DNA of 64,000 nucleotides from Candidatus Thorarchaeota archaeon (lineage in GTDB: Archaea > Asgardarchaeota > Thorarchaeia > Thorarchaeales > Thorarchaeaceae). Below are positions 6,964 to 42,045 of the stretch, in pieces (position 1 is the stretch's first letter; every line of letters begins with the position of its first letter). The position numbers and the translations under genes are program-made. Under the pieces are notes generated by a model. The model saw nothing but the letters and a program-made list of their open reading frames with translations. It had not been told where the DNA came from and made no database searches. The DNA lies in contig JBHLRS010000018.1 of assembly GCA_048882325.1 (NCBI GenBank), forward strand, positions 42 to 64,041, given 5' to 3'.

Positions 6964-7359
6964 CTACAACATATCGGAACGAAATAGGTTTCTAATCCCC
7001 CAGGGATAGACGAACAGAGGTAGAAGTCCCATGAGGCCAATCAATCCAGCATCTACAACAATTTGAATGACAGTTTGAGCAAAAACAATCATGATGAAGG
7101 CATGGATAATGTTTGAAAGAATCAAGAAATCAATAAACAATTTGTGCTTCGTGGGGTCTCTCGCAGCCAAAATCATTACTAATCCAAAAGAAAAGTAGAT
7201 TCCACTCATCATGATCTCTGTTGGGAGATTTCTTGGCTGCCACAACAATTCGTTTCCTAAGAAATATGGTCCAATGGCAACTACAGTAGCGCTAAGTAAT
7301 CCAAAGAGATACAAATAGTATGATAGGAACCTCTCTTTGTCCAATCTAATCTCCCCCAC
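6964..7359 (-). CDS. 4-TM membrane protein
   Basis: Hydrophobic 131-aa ORF. Confidence 0.7.
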   Translation of the reverse strand: MGEIRLDKERFLSYYLYLFGLLSATVVAIGPYFLGNELLWQPRNLPTEIMMSGIYFSFGLVMILAARDPTKHKLFIDFLILSNIIHAFIMIVFAQTVIQIVVDAGLIGLMGLLPLFVYPWGIRNLFRSDML

Positions 7360-24254: not shown

Positions 24255-26276
24255 TCAAGAATCGCAATTTGTGCATCCTGCATAGAGGACCTGAACTCCA
24301 CCGAGGCATCCATCCCGAAACACAGTAGTTCCCTTGAGCTGAAGCTCGTCCGCTAACATGAATATCTTCTCTACATCCTCAGTTGTTGCATTGTTTGGAA
24401 GGTTGACCGTCTTACTCACAGCATTGTCAGTGTGTTTCTGAAAAGCAGCCTGCATCCGGATGTGCCACTCAGGGTCAATCTCATGCGCAGCCTTGAAGAC
24501 CCGTTTCACATCAGCTGGTACTGCATCAATATGCTGCACAGACCCGGTCTTTGCCACCTCATGTTCAATCTCATCACTCCAAAAACCTCGATCAACTGCG
24601 ACCTGTTCAAAGAGTGGGTTGACTTCGCTTAGATGGATTCCTTCAGCCAACATCCGACTGTGAGCAATTGCAAAGAGTGGCTCAATACCACTACTGGTCT
24701 GAGCAATAAGACTGATACTTCCCGTAGGTGCTATCGTTATGAGACTAGCATTCCTCTTCCATTTGTTTCGCTTCTTCAAGAGGGCAAAGTTCTCGAAGTT
24801 GCCTCTGATTCTTGCTAGTTCAGCAGAAGCTCGTTCTGCCTTTTGACGAATGAAGGCCATCACCTCTTCAGCTTTCTCTAATCCCTTTACTGAATCATAT
24901 GGAATCCCCAGTTTAATCAACAGCTCTGCAAATCCCATTATACCGAGACCTATCTTCCTGTTTGATTTGGTCACTTTCTCGATTTCAGCTACTGGAAAGA
25001 CATTCACGTCAATAATGTTGTCGAGAAAACGGACTGCTAGCTTTACAACTTCCTCTAGTCTTGACCAGTTTATCTCACCATCTTTGACCATTTTGGAAAG
25101 ATTGATGCTACCTAGAACACAAGACTCGTAGGGTAACAAAGGTTGTTCACCGCACGGATTTGTAGATTCTACAAGCTCTCCTTTCAATGGATGTTCATCA
25201 TTAATCCGGTCGATGAATATAAGACCTGGATCTCCAGTGCTCCAAGCATTGTGCACTATTGCATCGAATATCACTCTAGCACTGATTTTCTGTGTTACTT
25301 CCTTGTTATGAGGTGCAATCAACTCAATTTCTTTCTCATTTTTCAAAGCATCAAGGAATGGTTTTGTAAGTGCCACTGATATGTTGAAGTTTCTGAAAGA
25401 CTGTTTGTCAGACTTGCACGCAATAAACTCCATTATGTCTGGATGATCACAGCGAAGAATCGCCATATTTGCTCCTCTTCTACGTCCTCCCTGCTTGATG
25501 ATTTCTGTTGCTGTATCATAAACTTTCATGAACGATAATGGTCCACTAGCCACTCCTCCAGTGGTTCCCACAGTGGATCCTACAGGTCTCAATCTAGAGA
25601 AGGAGAAACCTGTCCCGCCTCCTGACTTCTGAACTATTGCCATGTTCTGAAGTGATGTGAATATGGATGTCATATTGTCCTCTATGGGGAGAACGAAACA
25701 AGCACTGCATTGACCAATCTCTGTACCGGCATTAAAGAGAGTTGGACTATTAGGAAGGAACTCAAGGTTTGCCATCATGTAGTAGAACAGATTATCATAC
25801 TCTTCTACATCTGCGTTATCATCATACTTCTGTTCTATACTAGCGACAGCTTCAGAAACTCGTCGAAACATTTGTGATGGGGTCTCCAATGGATTGCCTT
25901 CTTCGTCCTTCAGAAGGTATCTTGAGAGAACTGTTGCTGCGTTCGGACCGAATTTGAGGTCATCAACCACTCCCATCATTTGCAGTATCTTACGCGCCTC
26001 ATGATGCTTCTCGCGGTATTTCATATAGCGACGGGCAATCTCCGTGAATCCTCGCAACATCAGTGTGTCTTCTACAATGTCCTGTATCTCTTCTATATGG
26101 ATGACATCACGTTCTTGTTCATGAATGATTTGGACGACTTCCTTAGTTAGTCCTCTCACAGGTCCTGTGTCTGCACTAATAGATTCGAATGCTTTTGCGA
26201 TGGCAGCTTCAATCTTGGATTCATCAAAATCTACTATTCTCTTGTCTCGTTTCTCTACTCTCACTATGATCCTCAC
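24255..26276 (-). CDS. nrdJ: Class II (adenosylcobalamin-dependent) ribonucleotide reductase with N-terminal ATP cone
   Basis: VEKRD..IVDFD.SKI ATP cone; PNSPTL, SACFV, QGGRRRGANM, TNPCGEQPL, TIAPTGS; C-terminal CxxC. Confidence 0.95.
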   Translation of the reverse strand: MRIIVRVEKRDKRIVDFDESKIEAAIAKAFESISADTGPVRGLTKEVVQIIHEQERDVIHIEEIQDIVEDTLMLRGFTEIARRYMKYREKHHEARKILQMMGVVDDLKFGPNAATVLSRYLLKDEEGNPLETPSQMFRRVSEAVASIEQKYDDNADVEEYDNLFYYMMANLEFLPNSPTLFNAGTEIGQCSACFVLPIEDNMTSIFTSLQNMAIVQKSGGGTGFSFSRLRPVGSTVGTTGGVASGPLSFMKVYDTATEIIKQGGRRRGANMAILRCDHPDIMEFIACKSDKQSFRNFNISVALTKPFLDALKNEKEIELIAPHNKEVTQKISARVIFDAIVHNAWSTGDPGLIFIDRINDEHPLKGELVESTNPCGEQPLLPYESCVLGSINLSKMVKDGEINWSRLEEVVKLAVRFLDNIIDVNVFPVAEIEKVTKSNRKIGLGIMGFAELLIKLGIPYDSVKGLEKAEEVMAFIRQKAERASAELARIRGNFENFALLKKRNKWKRNASLITIAPTGSISLIAQTSSGIEPLFAIAHSRMLAEGIHLSEVNPLFEQVAVDRGFWSDEIEHEVAKTGSVQHIDAVPADVKRVFKAAHEIDPEWHIRMQAAFQKHTDNAVSKTVNLPNNATTEDVEKIFMLADELQLKGTTVFRDGCLGGVQVLYAGCTNCDS

Positions 26277-38009: not shown

Positions 38010-38633
38010 TTGCCCAAGACCTCTAAATTGGAGACTGGGACTGTGAACACTCGGAAAGAATTCTTTGATGAGCCTCTTGTCAAGGTTGATTTCCTAAAAG
38101 CAAGATTTCCTAAGATATGTCCCGTCTGTGGAGCATCAGCAACTACACTTGTGCGACTGAACATTGCCAAGGCGAATAAGATTCCATTACGCCCCTCGTT
38201 AGATTATTTATCCCCACGGAGGCAATGGAATAAACAGCATGAATTAAAGGTTCTCCCGATTTTTGTTTGTGAGAATCATTCTGATCCAGATTCCGGTACT
38301 GACCGATACCAGTCTCTCTGTTTGATTATTGATGGTTTTCTCTTGGCTTTTGTGGTATTTAGCCTTCTAATGATTGGTGATAGGATTGCACGAGCTCGTC
38401 CAATATCCCTCTGGTCGTTCCTCTACTTCGGTCTTTTTGGATTTGCAATGCTCCTTACAATTATAGCTTTTCAGCCAAATGTGCTTGAGAAGGCTGTGAG
38501 AATTATCGGATTTGATTCAGGAATGCGGAATGTGTTGCTTGCCTTCAAACGACCTGAATATCGAGAACAGTTTCTGCACGAAAATCAGATGTATGCTGAA
38601 CTCGTGAGTTGGATTAAGCGAGCTGATGGTTAA
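38010..38633 (+). CDS. Membrane protein with N-terminal Cys/His zinc-binding motif
   Basis: FPKICPVCG...CENH, then two TM helices. Confidence 0.75.
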   Translation: MPKTSKLETGTVNTRKEFFDEPLVKVDFLKARFPKICPVCGASATTLVRLNIAKANKIPLRPSLDYLSPRRQWNKQHELKVLPIFVCENHSDPDSGTDRYQSLCLIIDGFLLAFVVFSLLMIGDRIARARPISLWSFLYFGLFGFAMLLTIIAFQPNVLEKAVRIIGFDSGMRNVLLAFKRPEYREQFLHENQMYAELVSWIKRADG

Positions 38634-38655
38634 GCTAAAAATCTGCATAAAGTGC

Positions 38656-38760
38656 CTATGTTGCTTCCATCATAAGCACTTCATGGACAGTTAGGCAACG
38701 ACGCTTTGCATTGTCGTTGAATGATCTGGTGGACTTCTCTGTGATGCGACTCATTGTCAT
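38656..38760 (-). CDS. Micropeptide C: MTMSRITEKSTRSFNDNAKRRCLTVHEVLMMEAT (34 aa)
   Basis: Third ORF of a tightly packed array; AGGT upstream. Confidence 0.5.
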   Translation of the reverse strand: MTMSRITEKSTRSFNDNAKRRCLTVHEVLMMEAT

Positions 38761-38767
38761 CAACTAC

Positions 38768-38854
38768 CTACCTGTACATGTACGAGTGGGTCAATGCATC
38801 AGTAGAGAGTTTCTTCCCATAGGTTCTCTTGGTCTTCTTCTTTGCCAACGCCAT
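38768..38854 (-). CDS. Micropeptide B: MALAKKKTKRTYGKKLSTDALTHSYMYR (28 aa)
   Basis: GGAGGT RBS; paralogous to peptide A. Confidence 0.75.
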   Translation of the reverse strand: MALAKKKTKRTYGKKLSTDALTHSYMYR

Positions 38855-38860
38855 GTCATT

Positions 38861-38962
38861 CTACCTCCGATAGGTGTAAGCATGGGTCAGAGCATAGGTC
38901 GAGACCTTAGCCCTGTCGTGCTTCAGCGCAGACTTAGTTCGTGAGTTAGTTGTTAGAGCCAT
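38861..38962 (-). CDS. Micropeptide A: MALTTNSRTKSALKHDRAKVSTYALTHAYTYRR (33 aa)
   Basis: TATATATA box at 38995-39002 upstream; paralogous to peptide B. Confidence 0.75.
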   Translation of the reverse strand: MALTTNSRTKSALKHDRAKVSTYALTHAYTYRR

Positions 38963-39072
38963 GATATTTCACAAGAAGTACTGCTCAGATTGAGTATATA
39001 TAGCGAAGCCACTTCTTAGGGTCACAGAAAGAAGTCACATATTGTTACTATCAGAGTGAATGAGAACTGGAT

Positions 39073-39459
39073 GTGAGTATGTTGATACAAGGCATGGATG
39101 TCATCTATTTACACGCTCGAGATGCAAAGAAAACTGGAAAGTGGTATGAGGAGGTCCTAGGACTCAAAGTGAAGTATAAGACATCTGATTCCAGCTGGTT
39201 GGAATTTGACTTTGAAAAGAGTCCATCGACCAGATTTGCAGTCGAAGCTGCTCCATCACCAGATGCATCATCTGTCAAACAACAAGGAATCATGATCTCA
39301 TTTAGAGTTGCGGATATCCACAAGGCGGTTGATAGACTTGAGAAGCTCGGTGTTGTTTTCCATGGAACTCCGAAGGTTAAGGAGGAAGGTGTTTCACGGT
39401 TCGTTACGTTTCAAGATCCTGAGGGCAACTGGCTTCAGCTCTCACAGAGAATCAAGTAA
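39073..39459 (+). CDS. VOC/glyoxalase family protein
   Basis: WYEEVLGL, FRVADI, FQDPEGN. Confidence 0.9.
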   Translation: MSMLIQGMDVIYLHARDAKKTGKWYEEVLGLKVKYKTSDSSWLEFDFEKSPSTRFAVEAAPSPDASSVKQQGIMISFRVADIHKAVDRLEKLGVVFHGTPKVKEEGVSRFVTFQDPEGNWLQLSQRIK

Positions 39460-40764: not shown

Positions 40765-42045
40765 ATGACTGAAAGGAAGAGGTTGAAAATTGATATTGCA
40801 AGACTGAATGAAATCAACGAGTTTCTTCTACGTGATGACAATCCACTAGTTATCGATCTTCTCAAAGTAATCGAGAAATATGGCGGTGTAGATGAGATTA
40901 ACAAGAAAGCAGAGGAGGCAAGAAAACTTGAGAATCTCATTTCACAACTTGAGGCAAAGAACTCCCCTTATGTGAAGGATCTCACATGGTTACAAGAGCA
41001 ACGCGATAATGAGGCCTTCATATCAGTACCTGATTATAGACAGAAAATTCTTGGTGACAAGGCTGCCAGTATGAAGTTTGATGATAGCTTTGCAGTCACT
41101 CTTGAGATAAGCGCTTGTCAGTACTTCCCGTGGCTTATCGAAGAAGCTAAACAATCAATTGAGAAACAGGAACTCATGCCGGGTAGATTCATCCGTGTTC
41201 GTAACATGGCAGAACAGACTGCTGACAATCAAGTCATCGCATTCGCCGCTGGGATGCAGATTGTTGGTTCCTCTTATGTTGAAACTCTTGACACTAAAGG
41301 AACCTATCCTGGACCAGATGGGGCACCTGCCAATATCCATCTTGGAGGACCTGATACAATAACAGGCTACTTTGGCGGTGTAGGTATGCCCAATGACTTT
41401 CCACTGAAATGGGCTGATGAGTACTTGAATTACTACACAAAATATGGAGTGAAACAGGTACTCAACATCAATCCCGGTAGTGTTCTAGTCGGGTACATGA
41501 TGTACAAACTCGGAATTGATATGGAATTCAAGATATCTGTCTTCATGGGAAATGACAATCCCTACGCTTGTCTGTGGACCCTGATGACAGCCAAGCTGTT
41601 CAGCAGAGATGATGGGACAAGTCCATTGATCGGGTTCAATCTCTCGAACAGTGTAGATAACACGACCCTCGAACTTGCAGCTTTCATCAGGGAAGACTTT
41701 GGATTCGAGGATGTGGTCAGATTGGAACACCATATCACTGAAACCTACAAGAGCATTGTTCGACAGCCCTATGATCGACTACCGGAACTTCTGGAAATCG
41801 CAGATCATGTCAAGAACATCAGTGCAAAGCATGAGGGTGGGATTCCAGATATTGATGCCAAACGTGACCATCCTAGCGACATTCTCGACTACTTCCGGGA
41901 GAAAAATGAGATTGAAGAGAAGGGTGAGATGCCTCTATTGACACAGAACTATCTCGACAAACATCATGCGTTGAACAGAACAGCAGAAGAACTCACGAAA
42001 CATGGTCTTTCATTTATTGCTGCACAAAACTTACACAAATCATAG
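40765..42045 (+). CDS. Soluble hypothetical protein
   Basis: 426-aa ORF with enzyme-like composition; no family recognised. Confidence 0.85.
   Translation: MTERKRLKIDIARLNEINEFLLRDDNPLVIDLLKVIEKYGGVDEINKKAEEARKLENLISQLEAKNSPYVKDLTWLQEQRDNEAFISVPDYRQKILGDKAASMKFDDSFAVTLEISACQYFPWLIEEAKQSIEKQELMPGRFIRVRNMAEQTADNQVIAFAAGMQIVGSSYVETLDTKGTYPGPDGAPANIHLGGPDTITGYFGGVGMPNDFPLKWADEYLNYYTKYGVKQVLNINPGSVLVGYMMYKLGIDMEFKISVFMGNDNPYACLWTLMTAKLFSRDDGTSPLIGFNLSNSVDNTTLELAAFIREDFGFEDVVRLEHHITETYKSIVRQPYDRLPELLEIADHVKNISAKHEGGIPDIDAKRDHPSDILDYFREKNEIEEKGEMPLLTQNYLDKHHALNRTAEELTKHGLSFIAAQNLHKS

Follow-up and report, generated by a model that had tools for sequence, protein, structure and literature searches.

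A family of micropeptide operons behind a shared promoter in one Thorarchaeota family

Does the unannotated minus-strand segment 38656–39002 of a 64,000-nt stretch of Candidatus Thorarchaeota DNA (GenBank assembly GCA_048882325.1, contig JBHLRS010000018.1; hereafter the window) encode real proteins, and what might they do? Reading the minus strand (38500–39200) alongside the listing of open reading frames (ORFs) reveals three back-to-back micro-ORFs, designated A, B, and C, of 33, 28, and 34 codons. This operon is one of four in the genome and one of hundreds in a single Thorarchaeota family. Comparison with their relatives indicates that A, B, and C are genuine selected genes, not chance frames.

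ORF A (38864–38962, TAG stop at 38861–38863; like all cassette elements below, on the minus strand) encodes a hydrophilic peptide of 33 residues with a charge of +6 and the C-terminal motif STYALTHAYTYRR. ORF B (38771–38854, TAG at 38768–38770) is in frame with A and encodes a 28-residue paralog with a charge of +7 and the motif STDALTHSYMYR. ORF C (38659–38760, TAG at 38656–38658) comprises 34 residues from its ATG, or 35 from an alternative TTG start one codon upstream, and consists of a variable N-terminal part and a selected C-terminal motif, LTVHEVLMMEAT. The start of B lies 6 nt behind the stop of A, and the start of C lies 7 nt behind the stop of B. The ribosome-binding sites of B and C are built from the last arginine codon or codons of the preceding ORF plus its stop. 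In the case of B, the Shine–Dalgarno sequence GGAGGT (38863–38868) is formed by the last two arginine codons of A and the T of its stop. Short spacing is common in the family: the distance from stop to next ATG is 3–7 nt in 24 of the 27 A genes in the fetched loci, a set outside which the window copy lies. The original prediction, made from the letters of the window alone, had placed the TATA box, the three ORFs, GGAGGT, and the 6- and 7-nt gaps at these very positions. It had also proposed that the final arginine codons serve as the next ribosome-binding site, as the GGAGGT read in the end of A bears out. C is the last gene of the unit, since a convergent gene ends at 38633. A run of five T (38637–38641) lies 15 nt past the stop of C, behind a predicted hairpin, and is probably the transcription end.

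The architecture is repeated within the genome and across its relatives. The genome contains nine A/B-type ORFs in four cassettes, and paralogs with the same A-B(-third gene) layout lie on three other contigs, so that the A-B(-C) architecture recurs at three other places. A profile built from the nine members has matches in all 24 other genomes of the genus (3–14 per genome) and in none of 16 genomes outside the family. In all 24 genus genomes A-B(-C) is kept as open frames of about 30–42 codons, and no internal stops occur among the matches listed. Across the archaeal family, 68 of 85 genomes are matched, as against 0 of 1 in the sister family. At E ≤ 1e-4, matches occur in 58 of 76 family genomes and in none of 224 genomes from 29 other families of the phylum. 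The counts for A/B are lower bounds, as three genomes without a profile match have diverged A-like and B-like ORFs where the cassette would be expected. The motif search among relatives that had been suggested beforehand thus found the frames open and conserved. ORF C forms a separate family, present in 53 of the 85 genomes and nearly always directly behind A and B. Public protein sets hold about 30 unnamed members of 29–70 residues. The conserved 5' end of A has no match in 2.9 million viral contigs, which offers no sign of a mobile or viral origin.

One Thorarchaeota family keeps several hundred genes of about 30 codons under selection, a size that gene callers skip. Knowledge of Asgard archaea comes almost entirely from genome annotation, and seemingly empty intergenic gaps of 300–400 nt in Thorarchaeota metagenome-assembled genomes can hide entire operons.

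Two observations concern the spread of the cassettes. A possible tenth member lies on contig C27 of the same genome (E = 0.019), in a fifth, diverged cassette (C27:13446–13700, minus strand). It consists of an ORF ending in YYDYARIK, the sequence AGGAGGT, and a B-like frame (ending in TTEALAFAWLHRKGA) that needs a CTG start. This cassette has no canonical promoter upstream, and its neighbor is an AhpC/TSA peroxiredoxin gene. In a genome of another genus, five cassettes (L060, L061, L062, L064, and L065) share identical B peptides and near-identical promoters, with C present in two only. The likeness of these sequences suggests that the cassette was recently amplified or underwent gene conversion in that genome.

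Selection acts on the encoded amino acids, mainly at the C termini. Among 19 A genes of 33 codons, the fraction of non-consensus nucleotides is 0.12, 0.10, and 0.23 at codon positions 1, 2, and 3, respectively. The ratio of non-synonymous to synonymous divergence (dN/dS) of these genes is 0.37, based on 171 non-independent pairs. By region, it is 0.69 for codons 2–11 of A, 0.38 for codons 12–21, and 0.28 for codons 22–33. The corresponding values in B are 0.31 for the motif and 0.55 for the linker, and those in C are 0.27 for the last 12 codons and 0.77 for the preceding 12. As dN/dS is lowest in the three C-terminal motifs, the amino acid selection lies there. These values agree with the earlier description of A and B as duplicates that share a variable basic linker and a short conserved C-terminal motif. 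The 5' end of A behaves differently. Its codons 2–11 have a dS of only 0.29, compared with 0.75–0.88 further on, and the conserved start, MALTTNSR, is thus at least partly a nucleotide-level constraint. This low dS, together with the high dN/dS of the same codons, would fit a reading in which the locus is non-coding, its conservation belongs to an RNA or DNA element close to the promoter, and the frames are incidental. The overall dS of A, 0.67, is also below the value of about 2.0 for neighboring genes in syntenic loci. Such an element would not account for frames that stay open in hundreds of copies, with no internal stops among the matches listed, or for variability concentrated at third codon positions. 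Nor would it account for a dN/dS of about 0.3 on all three motifs, or for amino acid motifs that persist where the DNA has diverged. In addition, the segment 38600–39100 has no Rfam match and no covariation was found. The non-coding reading is close to refuted already, and hardly any likelihood is left to it.

The A and B peptides are small, basic, and hydrophilic. The original prediction gave their shared motif as K[VL]STxALTH[AS]YxYR. This string is present in A and B, but it is one variant only of a wider family core, [ST]T.A[ILV]..[AS][YF].[YR]R. The columns M1, T22, A24, Y29, and R32 are invariant among the nine members in the genome, and the histidine of the motif is often replaced by tyrosine, arginine, or alanine. 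A peptides have a mean isoelectric point of 10.5, a mean charge of +5.1, and a grand average of hydropathy (GRAVY) of −0.59 (n = 33). The corresponding values for B peptides are 10.8, +5.8, and −0.64 (n = 28). C is near neutral to acidic, and its selected C-terminal 12 residues are acidic and hydrophobic. The helical hydrophobic moments of A and B (0.26 and 0.29) are below those of shuffled controls, and z exceeds 1.64 in 0 of 33 and 0 of 28 peptides; A and B are not amphipathic as helices. AlphaFold2 predicts A, from 33 sequences, as a single helix of residues 5–32 with a mean pLDDT of 66.8. The distance from the serine of the ST.A motif to the stop is 12 residues in B, 13 in A, 14 in peptides of the YAYMTVVR type, or 15. 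With lengths of 27–37 residues, the peptides are about as long as the ribosomal exit tunnel. A complex prediction of A, B, and C with C as partner returned a score of 0.02 (mark 0.32) and counts neither for nor against binding.

The motif, which the original prediction did not recognize, has no match in known small-protein families. A, B, and C match no family in Pfam, NCBIfam, PADLOC, or PHROGs, the A profile finds no PDB chain at E ≤ 1, the ESM Atlas returns no usable match with A as query, and nothing from Rfam falls in the segment. No description of the A/B family was found in a non-exhaustive search of the literature, and supplements and small-ORF atlases (e.g. 10.64898/2025.12.15.694180) might list members. 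The suggestion that the motif also occurs, as mimicry, inside a larger protein found no support. There is no such protein in the genome, where one profile search was limited to frames of up to 150 residues, or among 1.84 billion representative proteins, in which the only long matches are translated repeat arrays. Five of these false matches to the A/B profile were inspected and rejected (P0002, P0004, P0011, P0015, and P0018). The repeat-array "proteins" are 130–340 residues long and represent three-frame translations of the types ISTHALTW.AT, FQLTRSRGAR, and FNSRAHVERD.

The peptide genes are preceded by a conserved promoter. The approximately 100 nt upstream of A are nearly identical in 30 cassettes from many species and comprise a palindrome, a third half-site, a GTGGCTyCGC box, a TATA box, and an initiation region. 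In the window, the 17-bp palindromic operator AGTAACA-ATA-TGTGACT (39033–39049; family consensus AGTCACA-N3-TGTGACT) is located upstream of the TATA box. The third half-site, TGTGACCC (39019–39026), follows 8 nt after the palindrome, a spacing that is conserved. The box GTGGCTTCGC (39003–39012), whose family form is GTGGCTyCGC, abuts the TATA box and by its placement would occupy the position of a transcription factor B recognition element (BRE). The TATA box itself, TATATATA (38995–39002), is conserved among cassette promoters and lies 32 nt from the ATG of A. The conserved initiation region CTTGTGAAATATC (38963–38978) stands just before that ATG. Given the 32 nt between TATA box and ATG and the usual archaeal distances from TATA box to transcription start, the 5' leader of A is probably only about 6–12 nt long.

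The operator defines a regulon of which the peptides are the main output. The pattern GT[CA]AC-N5-6-GTGAC with a TATA box within 60 nt occurs at only seven places in the 3.6-Mb genome. These are located before three peptide cassettes, an MFS_1 pump, a 369-residue protein, a bactofilin-domain protein, and a 920-residue GNAT protein (Pfam). A 28-nt pattern has 19 matches, against none for the reversed pattern, in five genomes of five genera, with the same gene types behind the sites. A 45-nt promoter pattern, which includes the box that abuts the TATA box, gives 74 exact matches in 185,579 species genomes (596 Gb), all in Thorarchaeota-type metagenome-assembled genomes. The two censuses overlap, as some stretches come from the same genomes. 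The 73 stretches that carry promoter matches are labeled Candidatus Thorarchaeota (51), Promethearchaeota (9), "uncultured archaeon" (12), and Candidatus Hermodarchaeota (1), and none is bacterial. The source labels of one neighboring protein are likewise Thorarchaeota or Promethearchaeota, and once Odinarchaeota. An A/B-type ORF lies directly behind 66 of the 74 promoter matches, which identifies the peptides as the main product of the promoter; four of the other eight matches have 94 nt or less of sequence left. The defined regulon and its operator sequence could serve as bait for an Asgard transcription factor.

Two further elements are associated with the control region. Upstream of its start codon, A has a TTGTGA that can base-pair with TCACGA in codons 7–8, so that the start codon would be enclosed (38940–38978). 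Each of the six pairs is kept in at least four of the five class I sequences, and covariation is absent. The two arms are similar to operator half-sites, and the comparison does not distinguish an RNA hairpin from a DNA site. Some cassettes contain a second conserved element composed of three direct TGGTCAC repeats about 11–12 nt apart, GTCTCAGAAACAGCATATC, and an inverted copy, GTGACCA. This array sits after A or after the promoter and ends about 20 nt before the next start. It is found on the genome's contigs C14 (~24985–25065) and C5 (~7250–7330, minus strand) and at loci L015, L017, L018, L020, L024, and L029. Its sequence resembles the promoter-operator half-sites, and it may act as an internal roadblock or a second control point. 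The array also translates as a spurious conserved 40-residue frame.

The 66 peptide-bearing promoters lead into A-B-C (25), A-B (15), A (16), A-A (5), B-C (2), B (2), and A-B-B (1) architectures, and tandem layouts (A-B(-C), A-A, A-B-B) account for 48 of them. A large same-strand gene stands right behind the peptides in only about 10 of the 66, and the peptides thus usually stand alone. The cassette in the window belongs to class II, which consists of A, B (ending in Y[MLI]YR), C (ending in EVLMMEAT), and a convergent zinc-ribbon membrane protein, and which is syntenic in seven of seven loci. C is intact in six of these loci and decayed in one (L009), where A and B are intact. Other classes include A-B-C behind polX; a diverged class with B and C in frame across a TAG; A-B followed 5–7 nt later by a 446-residue MFS_3 pump; A, a TGGTCAC array of three direct repeats and an inverted copy, A'-B', and an MFS_1 pump; A, a TGGTCAC array, and a GNAT protein (L015); and a B-like ORF 23 nt before a Peptidase_S41 gene. 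No ABC transporter was found within a cassette. The original prediction had stated that no modifying enzyme or transporter is adjacent. The part on enzymes stands, and the window copy has neither transporter nor immunity gene beside its peptides, but in sister cassettes MFS pumps take the place of C.

A-like and B-like ORFs with 5–7-nt coupling precede the MFS_3 pump in 13 of 13 loci examined from four genera (C8 of this genome, L007, L016, L025, L032, L018, L020, and L024, as well as L052–L056 from three further genera). The peptides of L052–L056 are too diverged for the A/B profile. A fourteenth MFS_3 locus, L068, has an A-like ORF and a gap of 360 nt. The pump scores highest with the profile TIGR00900 (drug:H+ antiporter-3 type), at 2.6e-64 and under the curated cut-off; its relatives include EntS, Mef(A), Tap, and Tet(V). 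A Pfam scan covered 23 of 31 candidate downstream ORFs, leaving out seven of 101–144 residues and one scanned earlier. The genes located 108–339 nt behind A-B or A-B-C, which encode an AlkZ-like protein, DinB_2, three flavodoxins, a methyltransferase, a HAD hydrolase, and a PAS protein, are probably separate units. In addition, the surroundings of a diverged cassette, L040 (C31:13000–27000 of this genome), contain an ABC-2 transporter (three genes), an MFS_1 gene, a TrmB-family regulator, an OPT oligopeptide transporter, and a 265-residue protein with weak PadR/helix-turn-helix (HTH) matches.

What, then, do the peptides do? The best explanation, held tentatively, is that the locus is a self-contained operon of translationally linked microprotein genes whose three products act in trans, A and B being paired with a gene that handles them, either C or a pump. 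A and B would be bioactive products, made in bulk once a factor that binds the operator turns on the regulon. The third gene would handle A and B or a fragment of them: the acidic helix of C could pair with their basic tails and so neutralize or escort them, and a pump, protease, or acetyltransferase could expel or inactivate them. By analogy, this would be the logic by which producers of ribosomal peptide antibiotics protect themselves. A and B would work by way of the C-terminal motif on a particular target, not by lysing membranes. That the peptides are the products is argued by the standalone majority, the A-B cassettes without a third gene, the variable distance from motif to stop, the absence of a conserved RNA fold, and a cargo gene that occurs with or without A. 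C points the same way, as it is built like A and B yet has nothing downstream. A real functional tie to the pumps is indicated by A-B before MFS_3 in four genera, by a second type of pump, and by the slot that C and pump share. If the peptides were exported or toxic, they would be the first ribosomal peptide weapon or signal of the Thorarchaeota lineage.

Several properties weigh against this explanation. The hydropathy of A and B differs from that of bacteriocins, none of 61 peptides is amphipathic by the z > 1.64 measure, and A and B lack a signal sequence. The substrates that MFS pumps are known to export are small molecules and peptides of some seven residues, and we know of no precedent for MFS export of 30-mers. 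The pump and the peptides do not strictly co-occur: searches with the MFS_3 query (E ≤ 1e-40) matched 0 of 3, 0 of 2, and 0 of 7 genomes in g26, g27, and g29, genera that contain A/B. No maturation enzyme adjoins the cassettes within the ~6–7 kb around the four in this genome. Given the non-lytic physico-chemistry and the lack of a known precedent for export, the handling model needs a specific target plus another release route, or a processed fragment.

Several known systems resemble the cassettes in part. Multi-peptide leaderless bacteriocin operons, such as those of aureocin A70 (AurA-D), garvicin KS (GakA-C), and the cereucins, consist of two to four tandem homologous genes of about 30–44 codons, whose products have isoelectric points of about 10.5–11 and charges of +4 to +7 (PMC6131525). 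For the bacteriocins listed there, GRAVY values span −0.14 to +0.7 overall and +0.4 to +0.7 for the multi-peptide ones. A and B share with these bacteriocins tandem homologous genes of about 30–34 codons, the lack of a leader, a cationic and unannotated product, and conserved accessory genes nearby. They differ in being hydrophilic (GRAVY about −0.6) and non-amphipathic, whereas the known peptides are hydrophobic or amphiphilic and helical with a saposin-like fold. Further differences from these bacteriocins are the cassette without an ABC transporter or membrane immunity protein, the archaeal host, and the lack of sequence similarity. Membrane-lytic, bacteriocin-like action is disfavored by the physico-chemistry of A and B. 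LsbB-type peptides also resemble A and B: they are relatively hydrophilic, leaderless, and of about 30 residues, with a conserved C-terminal receptor-binding stretch and a variable N-terminal part, and they use a drug-type efflux transporter, LmrB, for secretion and immunity (PMC6131525). LmrB belongs to the ABC type and the pumps here to the MFS, A and B lack the LsbB motif, and a cassette has three peptides versus one. Microcin C resembles the cassettes in its accessory logic. Self-protection against it involves the MFS exporter MccC, the GNAT acetyltransferase MccE, and the serine carboxypeptidase MccF, and both here and there a peptide gene heads operons with an MFS pump, a GNAT protein, or a serine peptidase (PMC9239234). 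The likeness is in logic only: the microcin C precursor has seven residues and needs the adenylyl/cytidylyl transferase MccB, an enzyme with no counterpart here, and in Thorarchaeota the protease is S41 rather than MccF-type and the genes are spread over separate cassettes.

The position of A and B also recalls leader peptides. In bacteria, leader-peptide control is represented by ermC, cat, tetA(L) reinitiation, mef(E)/mel, tnaC, and speF/speFL. The likeness lies in short ORFs directly before efflux pumps, a next start beside the stop, and a conserved C terminus. Unlike these leaders, most copies of A and B have no regulated gene, two to three paralogous ORFs follow in series, the motif-to-stop distance varies, and no alternative fold was found. 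Taken together, the leaderless and LsbB-type bacteriocins are nearest in layout and charge, microcin C in accessory logic, and leader peptides in position, and a defining feature of each is missing here.

Three other explanations compete with trans-acting peptides paired with a handling gene. A possible one, to which we lean less, treats A and B as intracellular stress microproteins. These would be polycationic and induced together, and their C-terminal motif would bind a polyanionic or conserved target inside the cell, such as DNA, RNA, ribosomes, or some protein machine, with C as a modulator and the pumps merely co-regulated. The small DNA-protecting proteins of spores, which are multicopy, dispersed, and co-regulated, offer an analogy. 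The charge of +5 to +6 in about 30 hydrophilic, non-amphipathic residues, the many dispersed copies behind one promoter, and the majority of cassettes without a pump agree with such a role, as do the stable synteny of the seven class II loci and the occurrence of the same operator before peptide-free genes (the bactofilin-domain protein, the 369-residue membrane-type protein, and one MFS_1 pump). What a stress role leaves unexplained is the coupling of A/B to MFS_3 in all 13 loci of four genera and the presence of C and pump in the same slot; moreover, no nucleic-acid-binding fold or family was detected. An origin as precursors of ribosomally synthesized and post-translationally modified peptides (RiPPs), which the original prediction had listed among its options, is improbable. 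Here enzymes from other loci would turn the C terminus into a small molecule or short peptide, which a protease would release and the MFS pumps would export. The motif is indeed conserved and rich in threonine, tyrosine, and histidine, small products would suit MFS pumps better than 30-mers, and an S41 protease and a GNAT protein stand behind sister cassettes. Yet no radical-SAM, YcaO, lanthipeptide-type, or other maturase domain is encoded in the ~6–7 kb around the four cassettes of this genome (8 + 19 + 32 proteins), only T, A, Y, and R are invariant while the histidine is often replaced, and the motif of C is unrelated.

The remaining explanation, which we consider unlikely, is a cis-acting relay of upstream ORFs (uORFs), in which A and B matter as nascent chains and termination beside the next start gates the last gene (C, pump, protease, or GNAT). 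The position of each ribosome-binding site inside the last codons and stop of the preceding ORF, the 3–7-nt spacing, the selection concentrated on the C-terminal ~12 residues, and the exit-tunnel length of the peptides (27–37 residues) are all consistent with it. So are the diverse cargo genes, each with its own copy in cis, and the MFS_3 pump, which is DHA3-like and related to Mef(A), Tet(V), and EntS. On the other side, a large gene to regulate follows in only about 10 of 66 copies, A-B-only cassettes exist, and L009 keeps A and B intact next to a decayed C. The motif-to-stop distance varies between 12 and 15 residues where a fixed tunnel register would be expected. An orthologous GNAT cargo gene occurs with A in L015 and without A in its C5 copy in this genome, and C shares the build of A and B with nothing downstream. 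An attenuator RNA is unsupported: five class I sequences contain no conserved alternative fold, their RNAalifold covariation term is +1.36 kcal/mol (a comparison of low power with so few sequences), and the z of the window operon is −1.75. The specific version in which A and B, as nascent peptides, sense a ligand or stress and gate the last gene (C, either kind of efflux pump, a tail-specific protease, or a GNAT protein) through a two-step termination–reinitiation relay, atop operator control, is more doubtful still. We know of no nascent-peptide control in archaea. A true relay would be the first regulon-wide translational control by nascent chains described in archaea; uORF control is common in eukaryotes, to which this lineage is the closest. 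Whichever explanation applies, the cassette offers a case in which translational coupling and the function of small proteins can be tested in Asgard archaea.

Two apparent features of the peptides were considered and set aside. The HbYX motif, known for opening the proteasome gate, fits only the B ending [MLI]-Y-R and not A (ending in YRR) or the FRR type. Two public proteins of 70 residues, P0013 and P0059, look like natural B-C fusions, but contain glutamine exactly where the genomes have an in-frame TAG. In the diverged class, across 86 genomes, exactly one in-frame TAG separates B and C in 46 of the 50 matches listed, is kept across genera, and none of these matches is fused full length. 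TAG is an ordinary stop that ends 641 of 1901 long frames. The glutamine probably reflects a gene finder that read TAG as Q, or else a rare variant.

The convergent gene (38010–38633, plus strand) encodes a protein of about 200 residues with a rubredoxin-like CxxC..C motif and predicted membrane helices. This zinc-ribbon membrane protein adjoins the window-class cassettes in all seven compared loci and has no family matches. Its true start probably lies later than 38010, as relatives begin at an ATG about 5–12 codons inside the TTG-started frame of the window. Further upstream of the cassette, a weak Rfam match to the C/D-box snoRNA model snoTBR5 (40771–40863, minus strand; 20.3 bits versus a gathering score of 44, E = 0.27) coincides with the 5' end of a gene starting at 40765 and is most likely due to chance.

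A Thorarchaeota-specific protein of 165 residues is encoded divergently, 70–90 nt from the peptide promoter, in seven loci (listed as C8:67251–67745 of this genome, plus strand, and L016, L018, L020, L024, L025, L085, and L114). It has weak HTH matches, and AlphaFold2 predicts a tandem winged helix with a pLDDT of 81. The model is closest to ScpB, JetB, MukE, and Nse3, which are kleisin partners (Foldseek E = 5e-5, TM 0.39). This protein was considered as the regulator that binds the operator and was set aside in view of the ScpB-like structural match and an SMC gene 4 kb away. The predicted structure suggests that it is probably ScpB-like, not the operator-binding factor. On C8, a 260-residue gene and a duplicated 52-codon fragment of the 165-residue gene are inserted between the latter and the cassette.

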